A stretch of DNA of 64,000 nt from Methanofastidiosum sp. (GTDB lineage Archaea > Methanobacteriota_B > Thermococci > Methanofastidiosales > Methanofastidiosaceae). The stretch is taken from assembly GCA_039679445.1 (NCBI GenBank), contig JBDKUY010000005.1, forward strand, positions 2,210-66,209. Reading direction: 5' to 3'. How positions within the stretch are numbered: the first letter of the stretch is position 1; each line of letters opens with the position of its first letter. The position numbers were made by a program, and so were the translations under genes. The notes beneath the pieces were generated by a model, which had not been told where the DNA came from, searched no databases, and worked only from the letters and a program-made list of their open reading frames with translations. Positions 4,663-56,562 of this stretch are shown one piece after another.

Positions 4663-5274
4663 TTAGATAAAAGCATCAATAACGTGGACAATCCCTCTAA
4701 AAGATCTTTCTTCATCTTCAGCGCTTGAGATTATGACAACGTCATTATTTTTAGGGCCAAACTTATCATGTAGTTCTGTTTCAAGAGCCCTACTCAAATT
4801 GAGCTTTATTGTTGGGATTTTTATCTCTGGTCTTGTTTCTGGGAGGGTAAAGTGATTGTCCCGGAATATCAGGGTAATTGCAGACCTAGCACCGCCAAAG
4901 ACCGCGCTATCCCTTTGATCCATCCCATCCTTTATCTTTGAAGATGCGCCCTTGATTATAGTACCGAAGTTTTTGTTGTTCAAAGTGAGCTCTTTGGCGT
5001 TAATTTCTGAGGGGATCCCAAATTGCGTAGAGCTTTCTAGGAACTTCTTGCCCTTCCCTGTGACCTTCTGGCCAACCCTTGAGGAATCAATGTATTCCAT
5101 ATCCTTTAGTTTGGAAAGGATTGACCTAATGCTGGCCTCATTTAGAAAGATTCGCTTTGAAAGAAGCTTTCTCCCGATACTTTCCTCTTTTTCAATGATC
5201 TTTAATACTATGAGGATGTCAGCATTGGTAAAGTTTGCCTGCGGGATTATTCTCCTCTCAAACATATCAATCAA
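4663..5274 (-). CDS. Winged-helix protein with DUF4443-like C-terminal domain (putative regulator)
   Basis: IGRKLLSKRIFLNEASIRSIL..LTGKG-like wHTH, then DGMDQRDSAVFGGARSA. Confidence 0.65.
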   Translation of the reverse strand: MIDMFERRIIPQANFTNADILIVLKIIEKEESIGRKLLSKRIFLNEASIRSILSKLKDMEYIDSSRVGQKVTGKGKKFLESSTQFGIPSEINAKELTLNNKNFGTIIKGASSKIKDGMDQRDSAVFGGARSAITLIFRDNHFTLPETRPEIKIPTIKLNLSRALETELHDKFGPKNNDVVIISSAEDEERSFRGIVHVIDAFI

Positions 5275-5329: not shown

Positions 5330-8305
5330 TTATAGTATCATATCAAGAAGATACGAAAGCTGTTTTATTGGTTCGTTTAGGTCAGATACGTTAGCTGCGT
5401 TTAGGATGAGTATATCCTTTTTGCTGTAGATGTTCTTTTGGTATATCATTCCTTCAGAATCTGTGTCAACAAAGTTTCCAAGGTCATAGACTCTCTTTAT
5501 TTCTTCATTGTTGTCCTTGTTTCCAATGAGGATCATGTTGTATTTTGCTCTGTCAGTAGCTGTAATCTGCTTGTCAGTTCTTATCAAGTTTGTAGGCTCT
5601 ACTTTGACATTGACTGTTTCTTTCTTTGGAACGAGATCAACCCTTTGTATCTTGTATTTGACATAGTACTTCTCTTCATCGTAGTCTTCAACATAGACTC
5701 TAAAGTATCTATCTGGGCCCCAGAATACTGCACCTTCTTTAAGGCAATCAAATGGAATTGGGTCGCAAAGTTCTATCTTAATTGAGCGCAAATCCTTGGT
5801 GCAATCTTGGCATCTATCAACATAAGGACTATAGACATTGCCATCATTCATGAGGAATCTAAGTTTCCATCTGGAACCGTCATTTTGAATGTAATCGCAA
5901 TCGCAGTCATCAATGCAACCGTAGTCTATAAGGGTGTAAATATTGAATCGTGCAATCATATGCTCCTTTGTGTCGCCATCAATGTTTTTCTCTAAATCGT
6001 GCTCCATGCCTACGAAGGCAACATCTGCCCCTTCAATTGCAAACTCAACTTCCTCGGGATAGTTATCACAGTCAAGGTCTTTGTTGTATTCAACTACACA
6101 CTGGCAATCTGACGAAGCAATATCCGGCGATAGATTTGTACCAGGGCTCGGTGTGAAGTGTCTTATTGCAGAGCCATATATCTTTCCAGTGTTTTTATCC
6201 TGTAGGAAAGCGACCATACCGCAGTAGTTTGTGCCACAGAGATTGATTTCTGTTCTGTATACATCGCCGCCCTCTAAGTCCTTCCAGTTATAATCTGCAA
6301 CTTTTTCACTGCATTCTATTGTCCACCTATTGATATTCTGCCAGTATTGTGAAGCTATGAGCCCTGTAGCAACAGGTGCACAGCAATCGCAACTTATGCC
6401 CCATACATTAAGGTAAAGTTCTGTATTTGGAAGGTCTTTGTTTAATCTTACAGTTACTAGCGCTTCTTTATCTGTGGCAGTTGTAAATCTTTCAGGATCC
6501 ATATTGGTGTTTATGATTATCTTTGCATCACAGCAACTGCTGACATTTGATTCATAAGCTGCCTTGAATGCTTCATAATATGCATCTTCTGTATTTGGAG
6601 GTATTTTTTGAATTGCCTTTGATTTATTTCCGTTGAAGATTAATGTTGGATAGTTTACATTGTTTTTGGCATCGTATCCATATCCATATATGTATGCAGA
6701 CGGCCATCCACTACCATTATTTCCAAGGCCAAAATGATCTTTAGCAGAATCAATGTACAATGGGTCAATTCCTGATTCGCTTGTATTCGAATGGAATATA
6801 ATTGGAGTTATATCACAGAGATAGCCCTCTGTCTTCAATCTGCAAATTGCCTTTGTTGCAGCGTCAGAATCTGCTTGGGTGTCCACAAAAAGCTCAGCAA
6901 GTGTATTATCGCAGCAATCAACAGTCATTATGTGTCTTTTTACAATACCCTCTGAGTCTGTAACTTCAATAGTGACCTTCTTCTCTCCTAGATAATCCTT
7001 CCCAGTTTTGTGGTCAAAGTTAACTGTTGTCTGGCTCTTGTCCCAGTTGATATCTACTAATTTTACTTTATAATCGCCGTATGTCTTAGTCTGCCCAACT
7101 TTGAACTCTTCATCTTCCCATGTCCTTGGAGTTCCATAGAAAATTCTACCAACTGTTTTATCTGGAAAAGTTTGGTCGTCGTTATATTTGTACATTCTTA
7201 GGAGATTCACTTGTTGGCTTAGGAGGTTATAACTTGATGTTTCAACTGAGTAACTCTTTCCACCAGTCTGAATAAAGTCCCCTGGCAAAGTTTCTTTTAC
7301 CCCTTCAATCCAGTAGTCTAGGTTCTTTAGAAGATTTTTATCCTGGCTAAGAGTCTTATCTGCCCAAGTAAAATCAATGTAATAGGTATTTCCATATAAG
7401 ACTGAAAATGACTCGCCTTTTGTCTCTATTTCATATAGTGAATACGGCTGTGTTGGATTGGGTGGTGCATAGCTAGGTGGTGGCCATCCCCACCCACCAG
7501 AAAGTGGATTTAAGACTACCAATAAGGCATTTGTTGTAATAGGTTTTGTTAAAGTATACGTATCTGTTCTTTTTGTTGAACTACCTGTAACTGGCCATAT
7601 TATTCCTTGGGCCGGTAATTCAATCCAGTTCCCAGATATGCCATTATCTTCTACATAAGTATTTGGGCATAAGCTCTGAAGATAATATATTGTGTAACCT
7701 GCATTAGCTGGAACTGTAACTGTGTTCTCATGAGTAAAGTTTACATCTGTAATTGTTTTAAAATTGTTGAATTTAACTATCACATCTCTTTTGCTGTAAT
7801 ATAGTCCCCAATAATTATATCCTGTACTAGCGATAATTCTAGTATTCCTATCGCCATCGAATAGAGCATCCATACTCTCCACATAAAAAGGGCAGTTTGG
7901 CCAAGCAGGAGCATAGGGGGTTGGATCAAGATAGCTATGTGAGAAATAGTAACTTGGTGTGGTAAAAGATCTCGTGTCAATTATATAATCTAAGTTAGAT
8001 TTTACTCCTGTATACCCAAATGCAACATTATCATGGTCATCTTCAGTGAAGTTTCCAGACTCCCAGATTATCTTCTCCTCAGCTCCCGTCACACTGTAGT
8101 AAGTTTCATTTGTAAGTTTAGTTACAACTTCTGCCACTCTCTGTATGTCTTTTGCAGTTGCAGCTTCACTTACAACTATCAAAGCTTGAGGATTCCCATT
8201 TTCATCAATAAAGAAGTCTCTTCCAGGAAGCTCCTGCGCAGAGTAGTTTGGCACTAGAGACAATACAAAAGCTAATAATAAAAAAACAGAAATAATTTTT
8301 TTCAT
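5330..8305 (-). CDS. Large Cys-rich S-layer-type protein
   Basis: Signal peptide; N-terminal FFIDENGNPQALIVVSEAATAKD and C-terminal NMILIGNKDNN resemble Thermococcales/Methanococcales S-layer N and C domains; RBS AGGTGAG. Confidence 0.65.
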   Translation of the reverse strand: MKKIISVFLLLAFVLSLVPNYSAQELPGRDFFIDENGNPQALIVVSEAATAKDIQRVAEVVTKLTNETYYSVTGAEEKIIWESGNFTEDDHDNVAFGYTGVKSNLDYIIDTRSFTTPSYYFSHSYLDPTPYAPAWPNCPFYVESMDALFDGDRNTRIIASTGYNYWGLYYSKRDVIVKFNNFKTITDVNFTHENTVTVPANAGYTIYYLQSLCPNTYVEDNGISGNWIELPAQGIIWPVTGSSTKRTDTYTLTKPITTNALLVVLNPLSGGWGWPPPSYAPPNPTQPYSLYEIETKGESFSVLYGNTYYIDFTWADKTLSQDKNLLKNLDYWIEGVKETLPGDFIQTGGKSYSVETSSYNLLSQQVNLLRMYKYNDDQTFPDKTVGRIFYGTPRTWEDEEFKVGQTKTYGDYKVKLVDINWDKSQTTVNFDHKTGKDYLGEKKVTIEVTDSEGIVKRHIMTVDCCDNTLAELFVDTQADSDAATKAICRLKTEGYLCDITPIIFHSNTSESGIDPLYIDSAKDHFGLGNNGSGWPSAYIYGYGYDAKNNVNYPTLIFNGNKSKAIQKIPPNTEDAYYEAFKAAYESNVSSCCDAKIIINTNMDPERFTTATDKEALVTVRLNKDLPNTELYLNVWGISCDCCAPVATGLIASQYWQNINRWTIECSEKVADYNWKDLEGGDVYRTEINLCGTNYCGMVAFLQDKNTGKIYGSAIRHFTPSPGTNLSPDIASSDCQCVVEYNKDLDCDNYPEEVEFAIEGADVAFVGMEHDLEKNIDGDTKEHMIARFNIYTLIDYGCIDDCDCDYIQNDGSRWKLRFLMNDGNVYSPYVDRCQDCTKDLRSIKIELCDPIPFDCLKEGAVFWGPDRYFRVYVEDYDEEKYYVKYKIQRVDLVPKKETVNVKVEPTNLIRTDKQITATDRAKYNMILIGNKDNNEEIKRVYDLGNFVDTDSEGMIYQKNIYSKKDILILNAANVSDLNEPIKQLSYLLDMIL

Positions 8306-8314
8306 AAGCTCACC

Positions 8315-9280
8315 TTAATTTTGGAACGAATCTGTGTATTTCCACTCGATTCTCATGCCGTTAGCCACTTTAATATTGGAAATACCTAGTTGTGAATAGT
8401 CATTGTTAATCCAGTACTGCCAGTACCTTCCAGTTGACCTGTTTTCAGCAAGACCTTCTATGGAAGTTACAAAGACACCTAGCGATTGTATATTGTAGTC
8501 AAACTGCATTCCAGAAGCCTTCATCGCATCAAAGATTGTAGAGTCTTTTGGAACTTTCACATCCTTCCATTCTTTGGTGTAACTGTTCCCAAAGTCAGCT
8601 GTGATATTAACTGTAACGCTGTTTTTGTCTTCTGTAGTAGTTGTAGAAGCTGAGATTGCAGGAGCTTCTGAGGTGATAGTTATCTCATCTTTTTGAACAA
8701 ACTGGTCGCCGTTATTATCCTTCCACTTTAATAGCAGAAACTGCGAGTTCCCGTATTTCTGTAAGTTTGCCTGATCTTCTAGAATAAGCCCTGCTGCAAA
8801 AGTACCTTCCCTTGATGCACCCCATAGCATCAGGACATTTGAGTTATTTGACTTCCCAAAGTATATGATCCCTATGTCTTCCCCGGAGCCTATCTTTGGC
8901 TTAGAGAGAGTAAGGTCTTTTGTAGTGATCAATACTCTATCTTGAGTTTCCTCATACTTTATTCCAAAAACATCATTTAGCTCTTTTGTCTTGGAATTAA
9001 TTACTGGCCCTCCCACAACAACAAGCTGCTTATTTGAAGGTGCTTCAAAATCCAAAGAATTTGTGCTTAAAACACCCATTTCTTTGAAGCTTTTTGAGAC
9101 AGTATCCCTTGTAAGAAGGTCAAGCGAGTTTGCATTCTTCCCCGTTACAAAGACTGTGCCATTTGAGAATCCCGATTGAACGTTGCCTATACTCTCTGCG
9201 ATAAATGGAGATGGCAACTGCACTAATAATATAAGAAATACAAATAGTATATAGAAATTCCTAAACTTTATCCCTTTCAT
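8315..9280 (-). CDS. S-layer-anchored DUF4430 (transcobalamin-like) cobalamin-binding protein
   Basis: Signal peptide; S-layer-C-like VVVGGPVINS; C-terminal GVFVTSIEG..YWQYWINN..GI..G.RIEWKY typical of DUF4430; next to an ECF transporter. Confidence 0.78.
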   Translation of the reverse strand: MKGIKFRNFYILFVFLILLVQLPSPFIAESIGNVQSGFSNGTVFVTGKNANSLDLLTRDTVSKSFKEMGVLSTNSLDFEAPSNKQLVVVGGPVINSKTKELNDVFGIKYEETQDRVLITTKDLTLSKPKIGSGEDIGIIYFGKSNNSNVLMLWGASREGTFAAGLILEDQANLQKYGNSQFLLLKWKDNNGDQFVQKDEITITSEAPAISASTTTTEDKNSVTVNITADFGNSYTKEWKDVKVPKDSTIFDAMKASGMQFDYNIQSLGVFVTSIEGLAENRSTGRYWQYWINNDYSQLGISNIKVANGMRIEWKYTDSFQN

Positions 9281-9308: not shown

Positions 9309-9331
9309 TATGGATGGTGTAGCCATCCATA
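9309..9331. promoter_or_regulatory. Operator copy A: TATGGATGG-N5-CCATCCATA
   Basis: Perfect 9-bp arms directly next to the minus-strand TATA (ACTATATA) of the DUF4430/S-layer operon. Confidence 0.75.
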
Positions 9332-9371
9332 TATATAGTTTTCGGATTTAGAATTAGAAAAGGTTAAATAA

Positions 9372-9392
9372 TACGGATGGCTAGACCATCCA
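9372..9392. promoter_or_regulatory. Operator copy B: TACGGATGG-CTAGA-CCATCCA
   Basis: Directly after BRE/TATA AAAAGGTTAAATA (about 9358-9370) of the ECF operon. Confidence 0.7.
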
Positions 9393-9400
9393 GGGATAAA

Positions 9401-10327
9401 ATGCTCGAACTTGTCTACAAAAGAAAAAGGTCAGTCTTCCATGATGCCTCGCCATTTTTGAAAATGTCATGGCTTTTTTCTATCCTTATGATTTCTGTCA
9501 TCTTTGAGCACCCTATAATTCTGTTTATAATATTTCTATCTTCATTGCTTATGGCTTTGGTATCAAAGATTTTTGCTGATTGGGCAAGGGTAATGAAACT
9601 TGTGGTGTTCTTTGTTCCTTTCGTTATATTGTTTAATCTTTTGGTGAATGCTAATGGTGAGACGGTGCTTTGGCAGTTGCCTTTTAGAATCCCTATATTT
9701 GGCATACTAAATATTACCTTGGAAGAGCTCGCCTTTTCACTCACAATGTGTATAAGGATAGCTGCAATCTTGGGCGCTTTTGCAGTTCTAAATCTTACTA
9801 CCGATCCAGACGAACTTTTGAGCGCCGTAACAAAACTAAGGTTGCCATATAGATCTGTTGTTGTAACATCTCTTTCCACAAAATTCGTCCCTGTACTTTT
9901 TGTTGATTTGAAGAACATTCAGGAAGCCCAGAGATCCAGGGGTGTTGATTTCTCTAAAGGAAAACTCTTAGAGAGAATAAAAAAATACGGGGCCATCTTC
10001 TTTCCATTGCTTTCAAAAAGCCTCGATAGGAGCGTCCAGATTGCAGAGGCGATGGAAACTAGGGGATTTGGCAGATACGAAAGGAGAAGCTTCTACAAGG
10101 ATGCCAAAATTTCTGCCTCAGACATACTCCTAATAGTTGTATCAATCGCACCCCTGATTATATCCTTCTATATGGTATCTCGGGGAATTGGTGCCTTTAA
10201 ATTCTATCAAAGAATCGATCCCCTGATAAAATCAAGTTCTGAAGCATATTATATTGTAGCGATCCTTCTAGTCCAAGTTTTCCTATTACCATTGCTTAAA
10301 ATCAAAGGGATGATGACCTATGATTAA
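9401..10327 (+). CDS. ecfT: ECF transporter transmembrane component T
   Basis: Hydrophobic protein with EAQRSRG and AEAMETRGF Arg motifs; start placed at ATG 9401, downstream of the promoter. Confidence 0.92.
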   Translation: MLELVYKRKRSVFHDASPFLKMSWLFSILMISVIFEHPIILFIIFLSSLLMALVSKIFADWARVMKLVVFFVPFVILFNLLVNANGETVLWQLPFRIPIFGILNITLEELAFSLTMCIRIAAILGAFAVLNLTTDPDELLSAVTKLRLPYRSVVVTSLSTKFVPVLFVDLKNIQEAQRSRGVDFSKGKLLERIKKYGAIFFPLLSKSLDRSVQIAEAMETRGFGRYERRSFYKDAKISASDILLIVVSIAPLIISFYMVSRGIGAFKFYQRIDPLIKSSSEAYYIVAILLVQVFLLPLLKIKGMMTYD

Positions 10328-11972
10328 ATTCAATGATTTTTCTTTTTATTACCCTGATGCTGTCACACCCGCCCTCGATAAAATCAATGTCAGGATAGGT
10401 GAGGGCGAGTTCCTTGTCATAACGGGCCCTTCTGGTGGTGGGAAGTCAACATTTTTGAGGGCGATAAACGGTCTTATCCCAAATTTTTACGGCGGGAAAA
10501 TAAGTGGAGATGTACTAGTCCAAGGTAAGAATGCTTCTGAGACCCCGACAAACGAGATGTCAGAGCTCGTAGGGATGGTATTCCAAGACCCTGAAAACCA
10601 ACTCATATCGAATCAAGTCGAGAGGGAGATAGCCTTTGGCATGGAAAATCTCTGCTTCTCACAAGAGCTTATGAGAAAGAGGGTAGAGGAGGCGCTTGAC
10701 GCAGTAAACATTTCAAGGCTAAGAAACAGGACAACTTCAGAGCTTTCAGGCGGCCAGAAGCAAAAAGTTGCAATAGCATCTGCTCTGGCAATGCATCCAA
10801 GTATACTCTTGCTCGATGAGCCCACATCAGAGCTTGACCCAAGAAGCGCCGAAGATGTTCTAAACGTTATAGAAAAGATTAACGATGAGCTGGGCCTTAC
10901 AATACTGCTTGTTGAGCACAGATTAGAGCGAGTCATCCACCATGTAGACCGGATGTTAATGATCGATGGCGGCAAGCTGATCTATGACGGGAGCCCCAGA
11001 AAAATAAAATCAGCGCACATAGAGAACTGGAAAGTCGGGCTTCCCCCAGTGACAAGGCTATCGCTTCACTTCAAGGACAAAATAGCAAACAACGGGATAC
11101 CCCTCACTGTAAAGGAAGCTAGGCTTGCCCTAAAGGATGTCTTGAGTAATCCAAAGAAAAATATCGCTTGGGAGAGGAAAAATAGCTCCGGGAAAGTTTC
11201 AATTTCCTTGGAGAAAGTTTTCTTTTCATATGACGGCGAAAAGGACGTTTTGAAAAATATTTCATTTAAAGTTTACGAGGGGGATATGATTGCCCTTATG
11301 GGAAAGAATGCGAGCGGCAAAACTACACTTGTAAAGCTTATGAACGGTCTTGTAAAGCAGAGGAAGGGGAAGATAGAGCTCTTTGGCAAAAAGATTAATG
11401 ATTACTCGTTAGATGAGCTCATCCAAAAAGTTGGCATAGTATTTCAGGATCCTAACTTGCACCTTTTCAACGACACAGTCCAAGAGGAAGTTGCATTTGT
11501 ATTAAGGAATCTGGGTATGGAAAAAGAACAGATAGATAAGAAAGTAGAGGAGATACTCAGGCGATTTAAGATATACCAGTACAGAAACAGCTACCCACAT
11601 GATCTGTCTGGAGGGGAGCGGCAGAGGGTCGCACTTGCCTCAGTTCTAGTTTCGGAGCCGGAGATACTGATACTAGATGAGCCTACAAGGGGCATGGACT
11701 ATTTTCTAAAAAAAGAGCTGATTTCTTACCTAAAAGAAAAGGCCAAGACCGTTATCATGGTAACGCATGATGTTGAAACTGCGGCAGAATTTGCAGACAG
11801 AGTTGTCCTACTAAGTGAAGGCAACATCATTTCTGATGGCAATAAAAGAGATGTACTATCAAAGGCACTGCTCTTCTCTCCGCAAATTAATAGATTGGTG
11901 CAGCCCTACACTAAATATGGCATACCTGACGATACCTTGACAGTTGAGGAAGTATTAAAGGTGGTTGAATAA
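10320..11972 (+). CDS. ecfA: ECF transporter fused double ATPase (EcfA-EcfA')
   Basis: Two ABC domains: GPSGGGKST/LSGGQ/DEPT and GKNASGKTT/LSGGE/DEPT. Confidence 0.93.
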   Translation: MIKFNDFSFYYPDAVTPALDKINVRIGEGEFLVITGPSGGGKSTFLRAINGLIPNFYGGKISGDVLVQGKNASETPTNEMSELVGMVFQDPENQLISNQVEREIAFGMENLCFSQELMRKRVEEALDAVNISRLRNRTTSELSGGQKQKVAIASALAMHPSILLLDEPTSELDPRSAEDVLNVIEKINDELGLTILLVEHRLERVIHHVDRMLMIDGGKLIYDGSPRKIKSAHIENWKVGLPPVTRLSLHFKDKIANNGIPLTVKEARLALKDVLSNPKKNIAWERKNSSGKVSISLEKVFFSYDGEKDVLKNISFKVYEGDMIALMGKNASGKTTLVKLMNGLVKQRKGKIELFGKKINDYSLDELIQKVGIVFQDPNLHLFNDTVQEEVAFVLRNLGMEKEQIDKKVEEILRRFKIYQYRNSYPHDLSGGERQRVALASVLVSEPEILILDEPTRGMDYFLKKELISYLKEKAKTVIMVTHDVETAAEFADRVVLLSEGNIISDGNKRDVLSKALLFSPQINRLVQPYTKYGIPDDTLTVEEVLKVVE

Positions 11973-12664
11973 AACTAAGTGACTTATTCCCCTTAATCGT
12001 TGTGGCAATAGCTATACTCCTTTTCGGCGGAGGCTTAGTATTTGATGAGTCTAGGACAATAGTTAAGCTCTGGCCATATGAGATAATAGGTATTTTTGTC
12101 CTTGTGATATTTTCTTTTGTATACCAGTTTGAAAGAAAAGAATTCAGCACAAAGCAGCTTACGCTTATAGCGATGCTTTCTGGGATATCGGCAGTCTTAA
12201 GAATCCCATTTTCTAATTTTCAAGGGATACAGCCTTGCACCACGCTCATCATATGCTCTGGTCTTGTCTATGGTCCGATTGCAGGGTTTTTTGTGGGGGC
12301 TTTGACGCCATTTGTCTCAAACTTTTTTTTAGGCCACGGGCCGTGGACACCCTTACAGATGATAGGCTGGGGGCTTCCAGGGCTCGCAGCAGGTTACCTC
12401 GGTAAAAAAGATATAAACTTTAAATTCATTATTGTATTTGCAATTGCTTGGGGATTTCTCTACGGCTGGATAATGAATATTTGGCACTTTGCCTTTTTTG
12501 TGAAACCACATACATTTGAAACTTTTATTAGGACTTATGTTCTTAGTATTGCGTGGGATGTGAGCCATGCATTTGGCAACGGATTATTCATGGCAATAAT
12601 AGGTGAAAGGACAATTAAGATTCTAACAAGATACAAGAAAAGATTTACAATTGAAAGAATGTAG
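11969..12664 (+). CDS. cbrT: ECF S component, CbrT-like (cobalamin)
   Basis: IAML..LRIPF..IQPCT..GFFVGAL..VSNFFLGHGPWTPLQM..WDVSHAFGN; probable ATA start at 11969 (ORF track uses GTG 12002). Confidence 0.8.
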   Translation: MKLSDLFPLIVVAIAILLFGGGLVFDESRTIVKLWPYEIIGIFVLVIFSFVYQFERKEFSTKQLTLIAMLSGISAVLRIPFSNFQGIQPCTTLIICSGLVYGPIAGFFVGALTPFVSNFFLGHGPWTPLQMIGWGLPGLAAGYLGKKDINFKFIIVFAIAWGFLYGWIMNIWHFAFFVKPHTFETFIRTYVLSIAWDVSHAFGNGLFMAIIGERTIKILTRYKKRFTIERM

Positions 12665-12799
12665 TTATTCTTTATGTTGGATGGTCTTACTTTTGCAGAA
12701 GTGGCAAATGTGATCTTTCACAGGATAAAGGTAACATTTGCACTTGGGGCAATATTCCCTGACATCTTTGGGGAAATTTATAATGACTTTATTCTTCAA
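12665..12799 (-). CDS. 44-aa Cys4 zinc-finger micro-protein (MKNKVIINFPKDVREYCPKCKCYLYPVKDHICHFCKSKTIQHKE)
   Basis: Manual translation; TTG start after GAGGT; CPKC and CHFC knuckles; overlaps the stop of the upstream micro-ORF. Confidence 0.65.
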   Translation of the reverse strand: MKNKVIINFPKDVREYCPKCKCYLYPVKDHICHFCKSKTIQHKE

Positions 12800-12908
12800 T
12801 TATAACTACCTCTAGGGTCTCGCTATTTGCGATTGCAGTAATGATTGATATCAATTTATTAGCTTTTTCATTATTCAAATCTTTCTTTGATATTTCAATC
12901 CACAACAT
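12789..12908 (-). CDS. 39-aa micro-protein (MLWIEISKKDLNNEKANKLISIITAIANSETLEVVIIEE)
   Basis: Manual translation; ATG overlaps the end of the upstream ORF and its stop overlaps the next start, suggesting translational coupling. Confidence 0.5.
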   Translation of the reverse strand: MLWIEISKKDLNNEKANKLISIITAIANSETLEVVIIEE

Positions 12909-13038
12909 AGACGCTCTCTCTTTTCGAGTAGTTATTATTTGATTCTAATTGGGAAATATATCTTTCATAGCATTCTTCGCAGATTATGTAAATATCCTTT
13001 TCTAATTCACATTTACAAATAATGCATTTATTGTTCAT
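12895..13038 (-). CDS. 47-aa Cys4 zinc-finger micro-protein (MNNKCIICKCELEKDIYIICEECYERYISQ...)
   Basis: CIIC and CEEC knuckles; ATG 13038 lies about 25 nt downstream of TATA, so probably leaderless. Confidence 0.65.
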   Translation of the reverse strand: MNNKCIICKCELEKDIYIICEECYERYISQLESNNNYSKRESVYVVD

Positions 13039-13060
13039 ATGGATGGTGTCGCCATCCATA
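13038..13060. promoter_or_regulatory. Operator copy C: TATGGATGG-TGTCG-CCATCCATA
   Basis: 22/23 identical to copy A; between minus-strand TATA (TTTATATA, 13069-13062) and the micro-protein ATG. Confidence 0.75.
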
Positions 13061-13158
13061 ATATATAAATATTTCTGTAACTTCGACGTAAAATGCAGAA
13101 AATCAGTCATGGGGAAAAGTTTATAAATTCCCTAAAATATTCACTTCTTATTAGGTAA

Positions 13159-13233
13159 GCCGCGGTCGCCTAGCCTGGGAGGGCGCCAGACTGAAGATCT
13201 GGTATTCCGCTGGTTCAAATCCGGCCCGCGGCA
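13159..13233 (+). tRNA. tRNA-Phe (GAA)
   Basis: Acceptor GCCGCGG/CCGCGGC-A, anticodon arm CCAGA-CTGAAGA-TCTGG, T loop TTCAAAT; CCA not encoded. Confidence 0.96.
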
Positions 13234-55967: not shown

Positions 55968-56562
55968 ATGTCAGTGGCCTTTATAGATAAAAACCGTATG
56001 GAGTCTTTGGTCGATGGAATTTTTGCAGTATGCATGACTATCTTAGTTTTGACAATTGACTTTCCTAAAGGGTTGATATTAAAGATGACATTGTAATTCT
56101 GAAAGCGATAGAAAATCTAATCCCTCAAATAATTATTTATTTTGTAGCTTTTGCTTTAATTGGCATATTTTGGTGCATTTACCATAGTCGATTCCGATAT
56201 GTAAAAAATTGTATAATAAGTTTATATAGATAAATTTATTTTGGTTGATGTTTATAGATTTGATGCCTTTCTCAACTTCTTTAAATGGAGATTATCCAAT
56301 GTTTCATACAGCCGTCCTTGTATTCCATCTAAACTTTTTGATAGTATCCTCTTTATTATTTATACTATGGGCATATGCATCTACAAATAATCTGATTGAT
56401 GAACATTTAGAAAAAAAGACTGTAAGACTAAATAGAAATATACTTATCGTGATGGTTGTAGTATGTTTATTTGCTTTGATAATTTCGTTCTTTTCACCTT
56501 CAATACGTAATCTTTCCTATTTTTTAATATTCCCTGGGATTTTGCTCGTGAAAAGATACTAA
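55968..56562 (+). pseudogene. TMEM175-family K+ channel pseudogene
   Basis: ATG 55968 gives RMESLVDGIFAVCMTILVL; frameshift near 56070, second frameshift near 56212, in-frame TAG, then LMFI.LMPFSTSL. Confidence 0.8.

Follow-up and report, generated by a model that had tools for sequence, protein, structure and literature searches.

A promoter palindrome at corrinoid supply and consumption genes of Methanofastidiosales, a likely transcription factor operator

The window analysed here is a stretch of 64,000 nucleotides from a Methanofastidiosum sp. genome (GCA_039679445.1; C5:2210-66209), and it contains three copies of an inverted repeat, ATGGATGG-N5-CCATCCAT, each in a promoter. Sequence comparisons make it likely that this 21-mer is the operator of a transcription factor that links the genes of corrinoid supply with those of corrinoid consumption, both within Methanofastidiosales and in one or more further lineages of archaea. 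Five promoters of the genome would be under the predicted operator, those of a DUF4430 surface protein gene, an energy-coupling factor (ECF) transporter operon of the CbrT type, a micro-protein operon, an operon for a corrinoid protein, methyltransferases and the activase RACo, and a gene for an MtaA::corrinoid fusion protein. The copies are few and confined to promoters, with a fixed register to the core promoter or the start codon, and they are kept at orthologous promoters as well as at non-orthologous promoters of the same pathway. In several lineages, sites are located upstream of genes for corrinoid or cobalt transport and corrinoid salvage. The corrinoid regulon is conserved across families, and probably across phyla. 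An earlier note, made from the letters of the window alone, had proposed a protein-based archaeal cobamide regulon. The sites at corrinoid methyltransferase, transport and salvage genes support this proposal; the co-regulation and the effector are what we infer.

Operator sites in the window and the genome

The three 23-mers of the earlier note are located at 9309-9331, 9372-9394 and 13038-13060 and read as quoted there, and their GGATGG-N5-CCATCC cores span 9312-9328, 9375-9391 and 13041-13057. The centres of the two half-sites (GGATGG and CCATCC) are 11 bp apart, about one helical turn, and the flanking AT/AT lengthens the operator arms to 8+8. A TATA box had been claimed directly upstream of each copy, and an A/T-rich TATA-like element, called by eye, is indeed found there at all three. 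The operators and the predicted TATA-like elements are the following (class I geometry is described below).

9310..9330: operator O1, ATGGATGGTGTAGCCATCCAT; predicted operator of the DUF4430 gene (minus strand) in class I geometry
9373..9393: operator O2, ACGGATGGCTAGACCATCCAG; 63 bp from O1; predicted operator of ecfT (plus strand) in class I geometry
13039..13059: operator O3, ATGGATGGTGTCGCCATCCAT; predicted operator of the micro-protein operon (minus strand), whose start codon (13036-13038) directly adjoins the 21-mer
9331..9340, minus strand: predicted TATA-like element of the DUF4430 promoter, AACTATATAT, directly upstream of O1
9364..9373, plus strand: predicted TATA-like element of the ecfT promoter, TTAAATAATA, preceded by GAAAAGG
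13060..13069, minus strand: predicted TATA-like element of the micro-protein promoter, TTTATATATT

The exact core has three matches in the window, and none of 100 dinucleotide-preserving shuffles has any match. With up to two mismatches there are four matches (one extra), a level reached by 10 of the 100 shuffles, and therefore only the exact form is informative. The whole assembly (labelled G000; 1,617,756 bases in 78 contigs, 35.4% GC, 94% complete) has five exact sites, against 0.017 expected from the base composition. All five are intergenic and located in promoters, in a genome of which open reading frames (ORFs) cover about 89% by a crude call; one of them is nominally within a 71-residue ORF, which overruns the real gene of 47 residues. 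In a scan with the 21-mer, allowing up to three mismatches, the five sites score 0, 0, 0, 1 and 2 mismatches. The same scan gives seven matches with three mismatches, six within long ORFs and one intergenic (C17:3585).

The arms of the operator are invariant, and the rare natural variants alter one arm only (GGCTGG in G007; GGATAG in G028 and G019 of genus g4). The 5-bp spacer had also been described as conserved with orientation. This holds in part. Among 56 genus promoter sequences read in the direction of transcription, in which orthologues do not count as independent sites, C stands at spacer position 1 in 42, and A stands at position 3 in 37 and at position 5 likewise in 37. The pattern is mostly C-T/G-A-C/G-A outside the corrinoid-protein sites, and at that class the spacer is free. 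A related palindrome, ATyrATGG-N5-CCATyrAT (for example ATTGATGGAAGAGCCATCAAT), is present in at least four congeners (G008:C12:22760, G004:C11:30231, G016:C3:25649 and G005:C1:775289).

The three copies head the operons that had been assigned to them, with O1 and O2 between two divergent units and O3 at the start of the micro-protein operon. The genes are listed below.

8315..9280, minus strand: surface protein of 321 residues, S-layer-like N-terminal part and C-terminal DUF4430 (Pfam DUF4430, E 9.1e-15; S_layer_C, E 1.5e-06)
5330..8305, minus strand: S-layer-like protein of 991 residues, downstream of the DUF4430 gene (Pfam S_layer_C, E 8.9e-05, below the curated cut-off)
9401..10327, plus strand: ecfT, CbiQ family (Pfam CbiQ, E 5.2e-36), with the conserved start MLELVYKRK
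10320..11972, plus strand: fused double ABC ATPase, ecfA-ecfA' (Pfam ABC_tran, two stretches, E 3.1e-66)
12002..12664, plus strand: ECF S component, CbrT-like (Pfam ECF_trnsprt, E 1.2e-15)
12895..13038, minus strand: micro-protein of 47 residues with four Cys (CxxC...CxxC), conserved in 9 of the 9 loci read
12789..12908, minus strand: micro-protein of 39 residues, an ORF with the core MLRIEI... in 7 of the 9 loci read
12665..12799, minus strand: micro-protein of 44 residues with four Cys, found in 14 of the 16 congeners but in none of 17 genomes from elsewhere in the order

The CbiQ-family T component, the double ATPase and the CbrT-related S component in one operon give the gene make-up of ECF-CbrT, and the operon encodes a putative cobalamin transporter of this type. 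The best solved relative of the S component is chain A of 6FNP (E 1.2e-09), an entry that is cited in the paper on the ECF-CbrT vitamin B12 transporter (PMC5997447). We read this chain, with a length of 182 residues, as CbrT. The 321-residue DUF4430 protein has a weak, non-significant match to transcobalamin-1 (4KKI, E 0.19). The S-layer part of the regulon, as it had been described, holds in part. The 991-residue gene does follow the DUF4430 gene here and is colinear in six of six mapped genomes, but it is an optional passenger, missing in G007.

The three-gene micro-protein operon (47, 39 and 44 residues) is kept at the protein level across the genus. The 47-residue Cys4 gene accompanies varied B12 transporters; it adjoins the ECF S component here and is divergent from a BtuF-like gene in G005 and G009. 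In G010, the 44-residue Cys4 protein is present without the 47-residue gene and without the operator. A tRNA gene (13159-13233) lies about 100 bp from O3 and is transcribed away from the micro-protein operon.

Two further sites are found on other contigs. The earlier note had named hits upstream of corrinoid methyltransferase genes as support in a genome scan for GGATGG-N5-CCATCC, and both extra sites head such genes. The fourth site (C53:8032-8048) is 72 nucleotides upstream of the gene of a corrinoid protein (B12-binding_2 and B12-binding domains), which is followed in the operon by two URO-D/MtaA-like methyltransferases and a RACo-type activase. The fifth (C68:56357-56373) is 90 nucleotides upstream of the gene of a 584-residue MtaA-family methyltransferase fused to a corrinoid domain. 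The regulon had been described as one of B12 uptake. The uptake genes do belong to it, but B12-consuming genes belong to it as well, with a different promoter geometry. The leader of the fusion gene contains a second palindrome, GGTTA-gt-TAACC (C68, about 56,410-56,425; L047, about 8,410-8,425), which is kept in 12 aligned genus promoters and could be a second operator or an RNA hairpin.

Searches of G000 by tblastn with queries from G005 and G021 detected no CbiM, CbiN, CbiQ, corrin-ring, CbiP, CbiZ, CobS, CobY, BtuF or BtuC gene; these corrinoid queries gave generic ATPase and aminotransferase matches only. As the cbi, cob, cbiMNQO and btuFC genes tried were not found, the organism appears to live on imported corrinoid, and at 94% completeness it looks like a corrinoid auxotroph. 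The congener G005 has corrin-ring (cbi-like) genes directly upstream of cbiMNQO on the same strand, and the operator is located in the 93-bp gap before cbiM (L027; G005:C1:871318-890670). Three of these corrin-ring genes give only weak matches in G000, to one methyltransferase-like locus. With a cbi cluster in G005 that has no specific counterpart in G000, B12 producers and auxotrophs coexist in one genus.

Conservation in the genus and beyond

The 17-mer core is present in all 16 congeners, in one to six copies each, and the reversed pattern used as a control has no match in any of them. All 69 exact sites in the 17 genus genomes are in intergenic promoter regions of seven gene classes. The tally was made by blastx against reference proteins and by inspection, with one G016 site placed by its position, 240 bp upstream of the 44-residue gene; sites at orthologous promoters are not independent observations. 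The classes are given below, with distances from the end of the core to the start codon.

MtaA::corrinoid fusion: 16 sites, 87-90 nucleotides
ecfT: 14 sites, 10 nucleotides (12 in G014); 10 nucleotides in 11 of 12 aligned genus promoters
DUF4430: 14 sites, 30-32 nucleotides, in all 10 aligned genus promoters
Corrinoid protein: 11 sites, 68-74 nucleotides at the conserved operon, 72-101 nucleotides at three further corrinoid-protein genes
47-residue micro-protein: 11 sites, 3 nucleotides
cbiM (G005, G014): 2 sites, 18 nucleotides
64-residue gene (G009): 1 site

The micro-protein site of G005 and G009 is at the same time only 121-130 bp away from the divergent BtuF-like gene. The functions of the target genes in the genus comprise B12-binding, URO-D/MtaA, RACo, CbiM/N/Q/O, Peripla_BP_2 and CbrT-like proteins. 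The association with cobalt transport that had been predicted for related genomes is borne out in the congeners, in which the motif precedes cbiMNQO; it also adjoins the BtuF-like gene there.

The site of the 64-residue gene (G009:C122:1989; L133) is a full operator that overlaps the stop codon of a gene with a TrmO_N domain, upstream of a TATA-like element and the gene, which belongs to no known family. The intergenic match C17:3585 in G000 is a decayed orthologue of this TrmO-adjacent site, with one half-site still good. In G005, the BtuF-like cluster too has TrmO-like genes beside it.

The phylum sample comprises 133 genomes, of which 97 belong to family f5 (mostly complete, 1.7-2.4 Mb). 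We take f5 to be Thermococcaceae, from its PH0730-like proteins and the GTDB placement. The strict 21-mer is present in 20 of the 133 genomes: 15 of 16 in f1 (plus G000), 2 of 3 in genus g5 and 2 of 2 in genus g6, with 0 of 6 in f2, 0 of 2 in f6 and 0 of 97 in f5, and the reversed control gives none. In g5, which belongs to another family (2.5-3.0-Mb genomes, about 44-47% GC), all nine sites precede B12 genes in the TATA-operator-start geometry. The targets are a BtuF-BtuC-BtuD operon, an ECF-S-like gene, a small DUF4430 gene with an S component, and a CobD-like aminotransferase gene with CbiP, with CbiZ (and a PgpA-like gene), CobS and a CobY-like nucleotidyltransferase further down the same strand. 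Hits upstream of cob/cbi genes in related genomes had been anticipated, and this family has the motif before btuFCD and before the CobD/CbiP/CbiZ/CobS genes.

At least 118 stretches of metagenome contigs match the motif, and 80 of them were examined. Among these 80, 40 are intergenic by a crude ORF call, and 13 have the spacer ATTAT or ATAAT, which gives the perfect 21-bp palindrome ATGGATGGATWATCCATCCAT. By our own reading, 10 of the 13 perfect palindromes are at B12-type genes, two of the ten assignments resting on weak or visual similarity.

BtuF-like genes: L183, L190, L208, L237, L239
ECF-S-like genes: L167, L231, L233; two are followed by DUF4430-like genes
DUF4430 gene: L232
S-layer/DUF4430-like gene: L236

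L233 was assigned by its visual likeness to L231 and L236 by a partial gene, and L192, L222 and L224 are unexplained. With a GC content of 42-60% and proteins that share 30-50% identity with their Methanofastidiosales counterparts, the contigs with the perfect palindrome come from other lineages. At L192 and L222, the palindrome stands before the gene of a 237-residue membrane protein without a Pfam match, which may be a further component of a B12-related transporter.

Genus g6 has one perfect palindrome ATGGATGGATWATCCATCCAT per genome (L056 in G022:C1; L060 in G032:C57). These two adjoin a small ORF and a PGK-like gene, or RraA/BirA-like genes, and no B12 link is seen at either; no DUF4430 gene was found in the g6 genomes. 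The exact 17-mers in G022:C3, G025, G033 and G037 are attributed to chance, as they are inside ORFs and have no AT flanks. In five Thermococcaceae-like genomes, no site with up to two mismatches is present in the 19 kb around cobS; no motif discovery was attempted there.

Promoter geometry and the regulatory signal

The sites have two different layouts. Class I comprises the supply genes: ecfT, DUF4430, the micro-protein gene, cbiM, all the g5 sites and the metagenome sites at BtuF, S-component and DUF4430 genes. A purine-rich stretch and a TATA-like element are directly upstream of the operator (about 14 nucleotides upstream at cbiM). The start codon is 0-32 nucleotides past the operator and often abuts the 21-mer (CCATCC-AT-ATG or CCATCC-ATG). 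In the window, it is 32 nucleotides past the core, with GGAGG, for DUF4430, 10 nucleotides for ecfT (ATG at 9401) and 3 nucleotides for the micro-protein. The archaeal TATA box is centred near -26/-27, which would place the start of class I transcription at or just after the operator, and we infer that these genes are leaderless or near-leaderless. A dimer bound at a class I site would block the recruitment of RNA polymerase, and would repress the gene when corrinoid is sufficient. Archaeal repressors classically bind in this region between TATA box and start, and the class I geometry suggests repression.

Class II comprises the consumers, the corrinoid-protein operon and the MtaA::corrinoid fusion gene. 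Here the operator is 9-11 nucleotides upstream of a conserved transcription factor B recognition element (BRE) and TATA box, which reads TTTATAAGTTAGG in the promoter of the corrinoid protein and GAAAAAC-CTTTTATTAA in that of the fusion gene, and the conserved TATA element is followed by a leader of about 30-60 nucleotides with a Shine-Dalgarno sequence. These downstream elements match the promoter of a tRNA gene in the window, GAAAAG-TTTATAAATT, taken as the local BRE/TATA reference. At the corrinoid-protein promoter, no conservation is seen upstream of the operator. The layout recurs at two corrinoid-protein genes (42% identical) on metagenome contigs of 58-59% GC, with a TATA-like element 9 nucleotides past the operator and start codons about 78 and 102 nucleotides from it. 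SurR, TrmBL1 and similar archaeal regulators activate from a site just upstream of BRE/TATA. By this analogy, activation at class II is somewhat favoured over occlusion of the BRE, which would mean repression there too. A single holo-regulator would then turn uptake off and the B12-consuming enzymes on.

Two points weigh against this assignment of geometries. The fusion promoter also has a TATA-like element, ATTAAATAA, directly upstream of the operator, and class II could be class I with a long leader. Moreover, the TATA elements were called by eye in AT-rich DNA. For the reading as a whole, the kin genomes are not independent observations. Contigs from two RNA libraries (metatranscriptomes) of one study, from which this DNA may also originate, have 146-267 nucleotides and match 9794-11246 in ecfT and ecfA without differences, which is weak evidence that the transporter genes are transcribed; they are confined to these two genes, none covers an operator, and DNA carry-over is possible.

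A corrinoid is the most economical reading of the effector, since G000 keeps the regulon with no use found for free cobalt, and uptake and salvage are the part shared across lineages. We consider it unlikely that cobalt or another metal is sensed instead, by a repressor such as those known for nickel and iron in archaea. The operator before cbiMNQO in G005 and G014 would fit a metal, as would the domain of about 110 residues in the candidate regulator described below, small for a corrinoid, and its structural relative NiaR, which binds a small ligand. However, G000 keeps the whole regulon at 94% completeness with none of the tblastn queries for CbiM/CbiN/CbiQ, corrin-ring, CbiP, CbiZ, CobS or CobY finding a gene. 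Its targets are a predicted corrinoid transporter, a surface protein of the corrinoid-binding type and corrinoid enzymes, and bacterial cbiMNQO is itself a member of B12 riboswitch regulons. There is a similarly small chance that the regulon serves methylotrophy, with a regulator that senses a methylated substrate (for example methylated thiols) or the state of the methyltransferase system and is a plain repressor at every site. Such a model requires no position-dependent activation and agrees with the second TATA-like element of the fusion promoter, and the fusion gene is the most constant target in the genus (16 of 17 genomes; corrinoid-protein operons in 11). On the other hand, none of the nine g5 sites is at a methyltransferase gene, all being at B12 transport or salvage genes, and the perfect palindromes of the metagenomes are mostly at BtuF, ECF-S or DUF4430 genes, so the part shared across lineages is supply and not methylotrophy. 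Moreover, the two geometries are kept apart in two distant lineages.

A non-regulatory origin of the palindrome, as a dispersed repeat, the end of a miniature inverted-repeat transposable element, an RNA hairpin or a chance match, is highly improbable. A simple terminator scan does flag O1 and O2 as stem-loops followed by T-rich DNA. However, these hairpins are on the strand without a neighbouring gene transcribed towards them, and at the predicted leaderless genes the palindrome precedes the start codon, which speaks against a hairpin in the transcript. The motif is not scattered without promoter bias, and the five copies in G000, all intergenic, share no flanks past the 21-mer, as the ends of a mobile element would. 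In all 17 genomes the motif stays in register with the start codons, the natural variants are altered in a single arm, and shuffled sequences give no match. A cobalamin riboswitch can be set aside for the window as the earlier note had it: Rfam at the gathering threshold finds only two tRNAs there, and the leaders of the supply genes are 0-32 nucleotides long. The operator of a corrinoid-responsive transcription factor is the reading that we retain.

Candidate regulator and comparison with known systems

The best candidate for the regulator of the palindrome is the DUF4443 protein encoded beside the DUF4430 operon, which we give an even chance.

4663..5265, minus strand: candidate regulator, winged helix and C-terminal DUF4443, 200 residues from the ATG at 5265 (Pfam and model)

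Pfam matches are found to DUF4443 (PF14544; E 1.5e-19, 70.3 bits against a cut-off of 27), CggR_N (E 2.1e-08) and PH0730-like_N (E 5.5e-07). The AlphaFold model (pLDDT 87.8) has a winged helix and an alpha/beta C-terminal domain, with the insertion domain of AspRS and the effector domain of NiaR/TM1602 as Foldseek neighbours of the latter. The model suggests that the C-terminal domain is a small-molecule sensor.

The candidate gene was found in 14 genus genomes (G000 included). In 11 of them it shares a contig with the O1/O2 pair, at a distance of 0.6-6 kb, and in the other three it is on another contig or at a contig end. G007 lacks the intervening S-layer gene, and the candidate gene there comes immediately after a short DUF4430 gene. 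The metagenome locus L232 has the operator in the gap between a DUF4443 gene and a divergently oriented DUF4430 gene (Pfam E 4e-07); this DUF4443 protein is only 24-35% identical to any member in Thermococci, and its nearest cluster in the Atlas, a lead only, is from Bathyarchaeota. Presence and absence agree as well. Family f2 has DUF4430 and S-component operons in three of six genomes, no operator with up to four mismatches at the three loci read and no DUF4443 gene in any of the six, and genus g4 has the DUF4443 gene in three of three genomes and a one-mismatch operator at both DUF4430 promoters read.

A number of results speak against the candidate. Its gene has a TATA-like element of its own behind an oligo-T tract and is therefore not demonstrably under the operator. 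No operator is present upstream of the DUF4443 homologues at 16 loci of g3, g5, f4 and Thermococcaceae, and autoregulation was rejected on this ground. G021 (91% complete) has four operators, and no DUF4443 gene was found in it. The putative recognition helix (E-x-S-I/V-R-S/T-I/L-L-x-K-L) is nearly identical in Thermococcaceae, in which the operator is absent (0 of 97). Only one of the 80 metagenome loci examined has a DUF4443 gene within its stored stretch of DNA, and the effector domain resembles no known B12-binding fold. The operator may thus be real and its regulator a protein other than DUF4443, the adjacency in the genus being mere inherited synteny, for which the gene's own promoter, the homologues without operators, G021 and the conserved helix all argue. 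We put this slightly below an even chance. The independent divergent pairing in L232 and the difference between f2 and g4 speak against it, as do the results for other proteins considered. A regulator of the CarH type was rejected, as none of the five B12-binding-domain genes of G000 is fused to a helix-turn-helix (HTH) domain. The ArsR-like gene beside btuFCD in g5 has no counterpart in G000. The micro-proteins were rejected as the conserved regulator, since they are restricted to the genus, the 44-residue one included, and G010 has the latter without the 47-residue gene and without an operator.

DUF4443 is found in Thermococci and Sulfolobus, the latter by its presence in Sulfolobus acidocaldarius alone among 14 control genomes, and clusters of Bathyarchaeota, Nitrososphaerota and Asgard archaea are Atlas leads. 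In Thermococcaceae-like genomes (L089-L095), the homologue is directly before a pyrF-like gene at the four loci read (L091, L092, L093 and L095), and this neighbour hints at a different regulatory role there. A more general proposal, rather doubtful at present, is that the DUF4443 winged-helix proteins are the missing corrinoid-sensing transcription factors of archaea, which as holo-regulators on ATGGATGG-N5-CCATCCAT would repress the uptake of B12 and cobalt as well as salvage from sites over the transcription start, and would activate methyltransferase operons that consume B12 from sites just upstream of BRE/TATA. If true, they would be the protein counterpart of the bacterial B12 riboswitch, one through which demand would be adjusted to supply as well.

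Archaea account for much of the production and use of corrinoids in the biosphere. No cobalamin riboswitch is known from archaea, and how archaea sense B12 is a long-standing question. The present analysis offers a precisely delimited operator, a regulon that is kept across families and apparently also across phyla, and one specific protein as the candidate, and the question becomes testable at the bench without culturing the organism. The motif can also serve as an annotation tool, as it marks B12-related DUF4430 surface proteins, unassigned ECF S components, two zinc-ribbon micro-proteins and the 64-residue protein, and it separates salvagers from producers of B12 among the uncultured methanogens of digesters and sediments. 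If the two geometries mean opposite regulation, one cofactor sensor would balance uptake against the synthesis of the enzymes that consume the cofactor.

This signal may have been seen before. Rodionov et al. (J Biol Chem 278:41148) reportedly described in 2003 a 'CBL-box', a predicted DNA signal upstream of B12 biosynthesis and transport genes of some archaea, with a hypothetical protein regulator. The presence of DUF4443 in S. acidocaldarius makes it possible, with a chance somewhat short of even, that the CBL-box is this very signal as found in early genomes of Crenarchaeota. In 2003 there were no genomes of Methanofastidiosales. The CBL-box description limits the novelty of the motif. A literature search, supplements excluded, found no paper that uses the term 'CBL-box' or mentions DUF4443, and the papers that it found on B12 regulators include none on archaea by their titles and abstracts. 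Broader searches and passages of PMC8123684, PMC7689651 and PMC2667541 gave no archaeal B12 operator either. Compared to the literature found, the new elements are the motif (with the CBL-box caveat), the methyltransferase operons with their distinct geometry and the DUF4443 candidate.

The best solved relative of the candidate, and a member of the same family, is PH0730 of Pyrococcus horikoshii (2P8T; phmmer E 4.1e-10; Foldseek E 3.9e-10, TM 0.69-0.74), a structural genomics entry of unknown function. In comparison, its Thermococcaceae relatives adjoin the pyrF-like gene at the four loci read, and the 97 genomes of that family are without the operator. NiaR, the niacin-responsive repressor of bacteria (HTH and 3H domains), is like the candidate a protein with an N-terminal winged helix and a small alpha/beta effector domain, and it controls a vitamin regulon. 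Its structures 1J5Y and 9EBR are among the Foldseek matches of the model (E 3e-03 to 5e-03, TM 0.25-0.30). However, this structural match is weak, there is no sequence relationship, and ligand and operator differ.

Other systems resemble the predicted one in their logic. SurR and TrmBL1 of Thermococcales repress from a site between TATA and start and activate from just upstream of BRE/TATA, which matches the two geometries here; their protein families and motifs differ, and here both outcomes are predicted from position alone. The photoregulators CarH and LitR link B12 to transcription through a protein, as proposed here. In CarH, however, a B12-binding domain is fused to a MerR HTH and the protein responds to light, and no such fusion was found in G000. 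TrmB of Halobacterium salinarum controls cobalamin biosynthesis genes and responds to sugar, according to the abstract of PMC2710871. Neither CarH/LitR nor TrmB is a feedback system of B12 homeostasis.

The closest parallel is provided by the cobalamin riboswitch regulons of bacteria (Rfam RF00174), which have nearly the same gene set and the same logic of feedback on supply. They include btuFCD, cbiMNQO, ECF-CbrT, DUF4430-type proteins and cobinamide salvage. There are two differences from the riboswitch. The element here is a DNA palindrome in the promoter and not an RNA leader, and several of its targets look leaderless. The methyltransferase operons that consume B12 are included as well, and the position of the site differs at these operons. 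In function, the regulon would be the archaeal counterpart of the B12 riboswitch regulon, and its mechanism would be an operator-regulator pair, probably with an output that depends on the position of the site.

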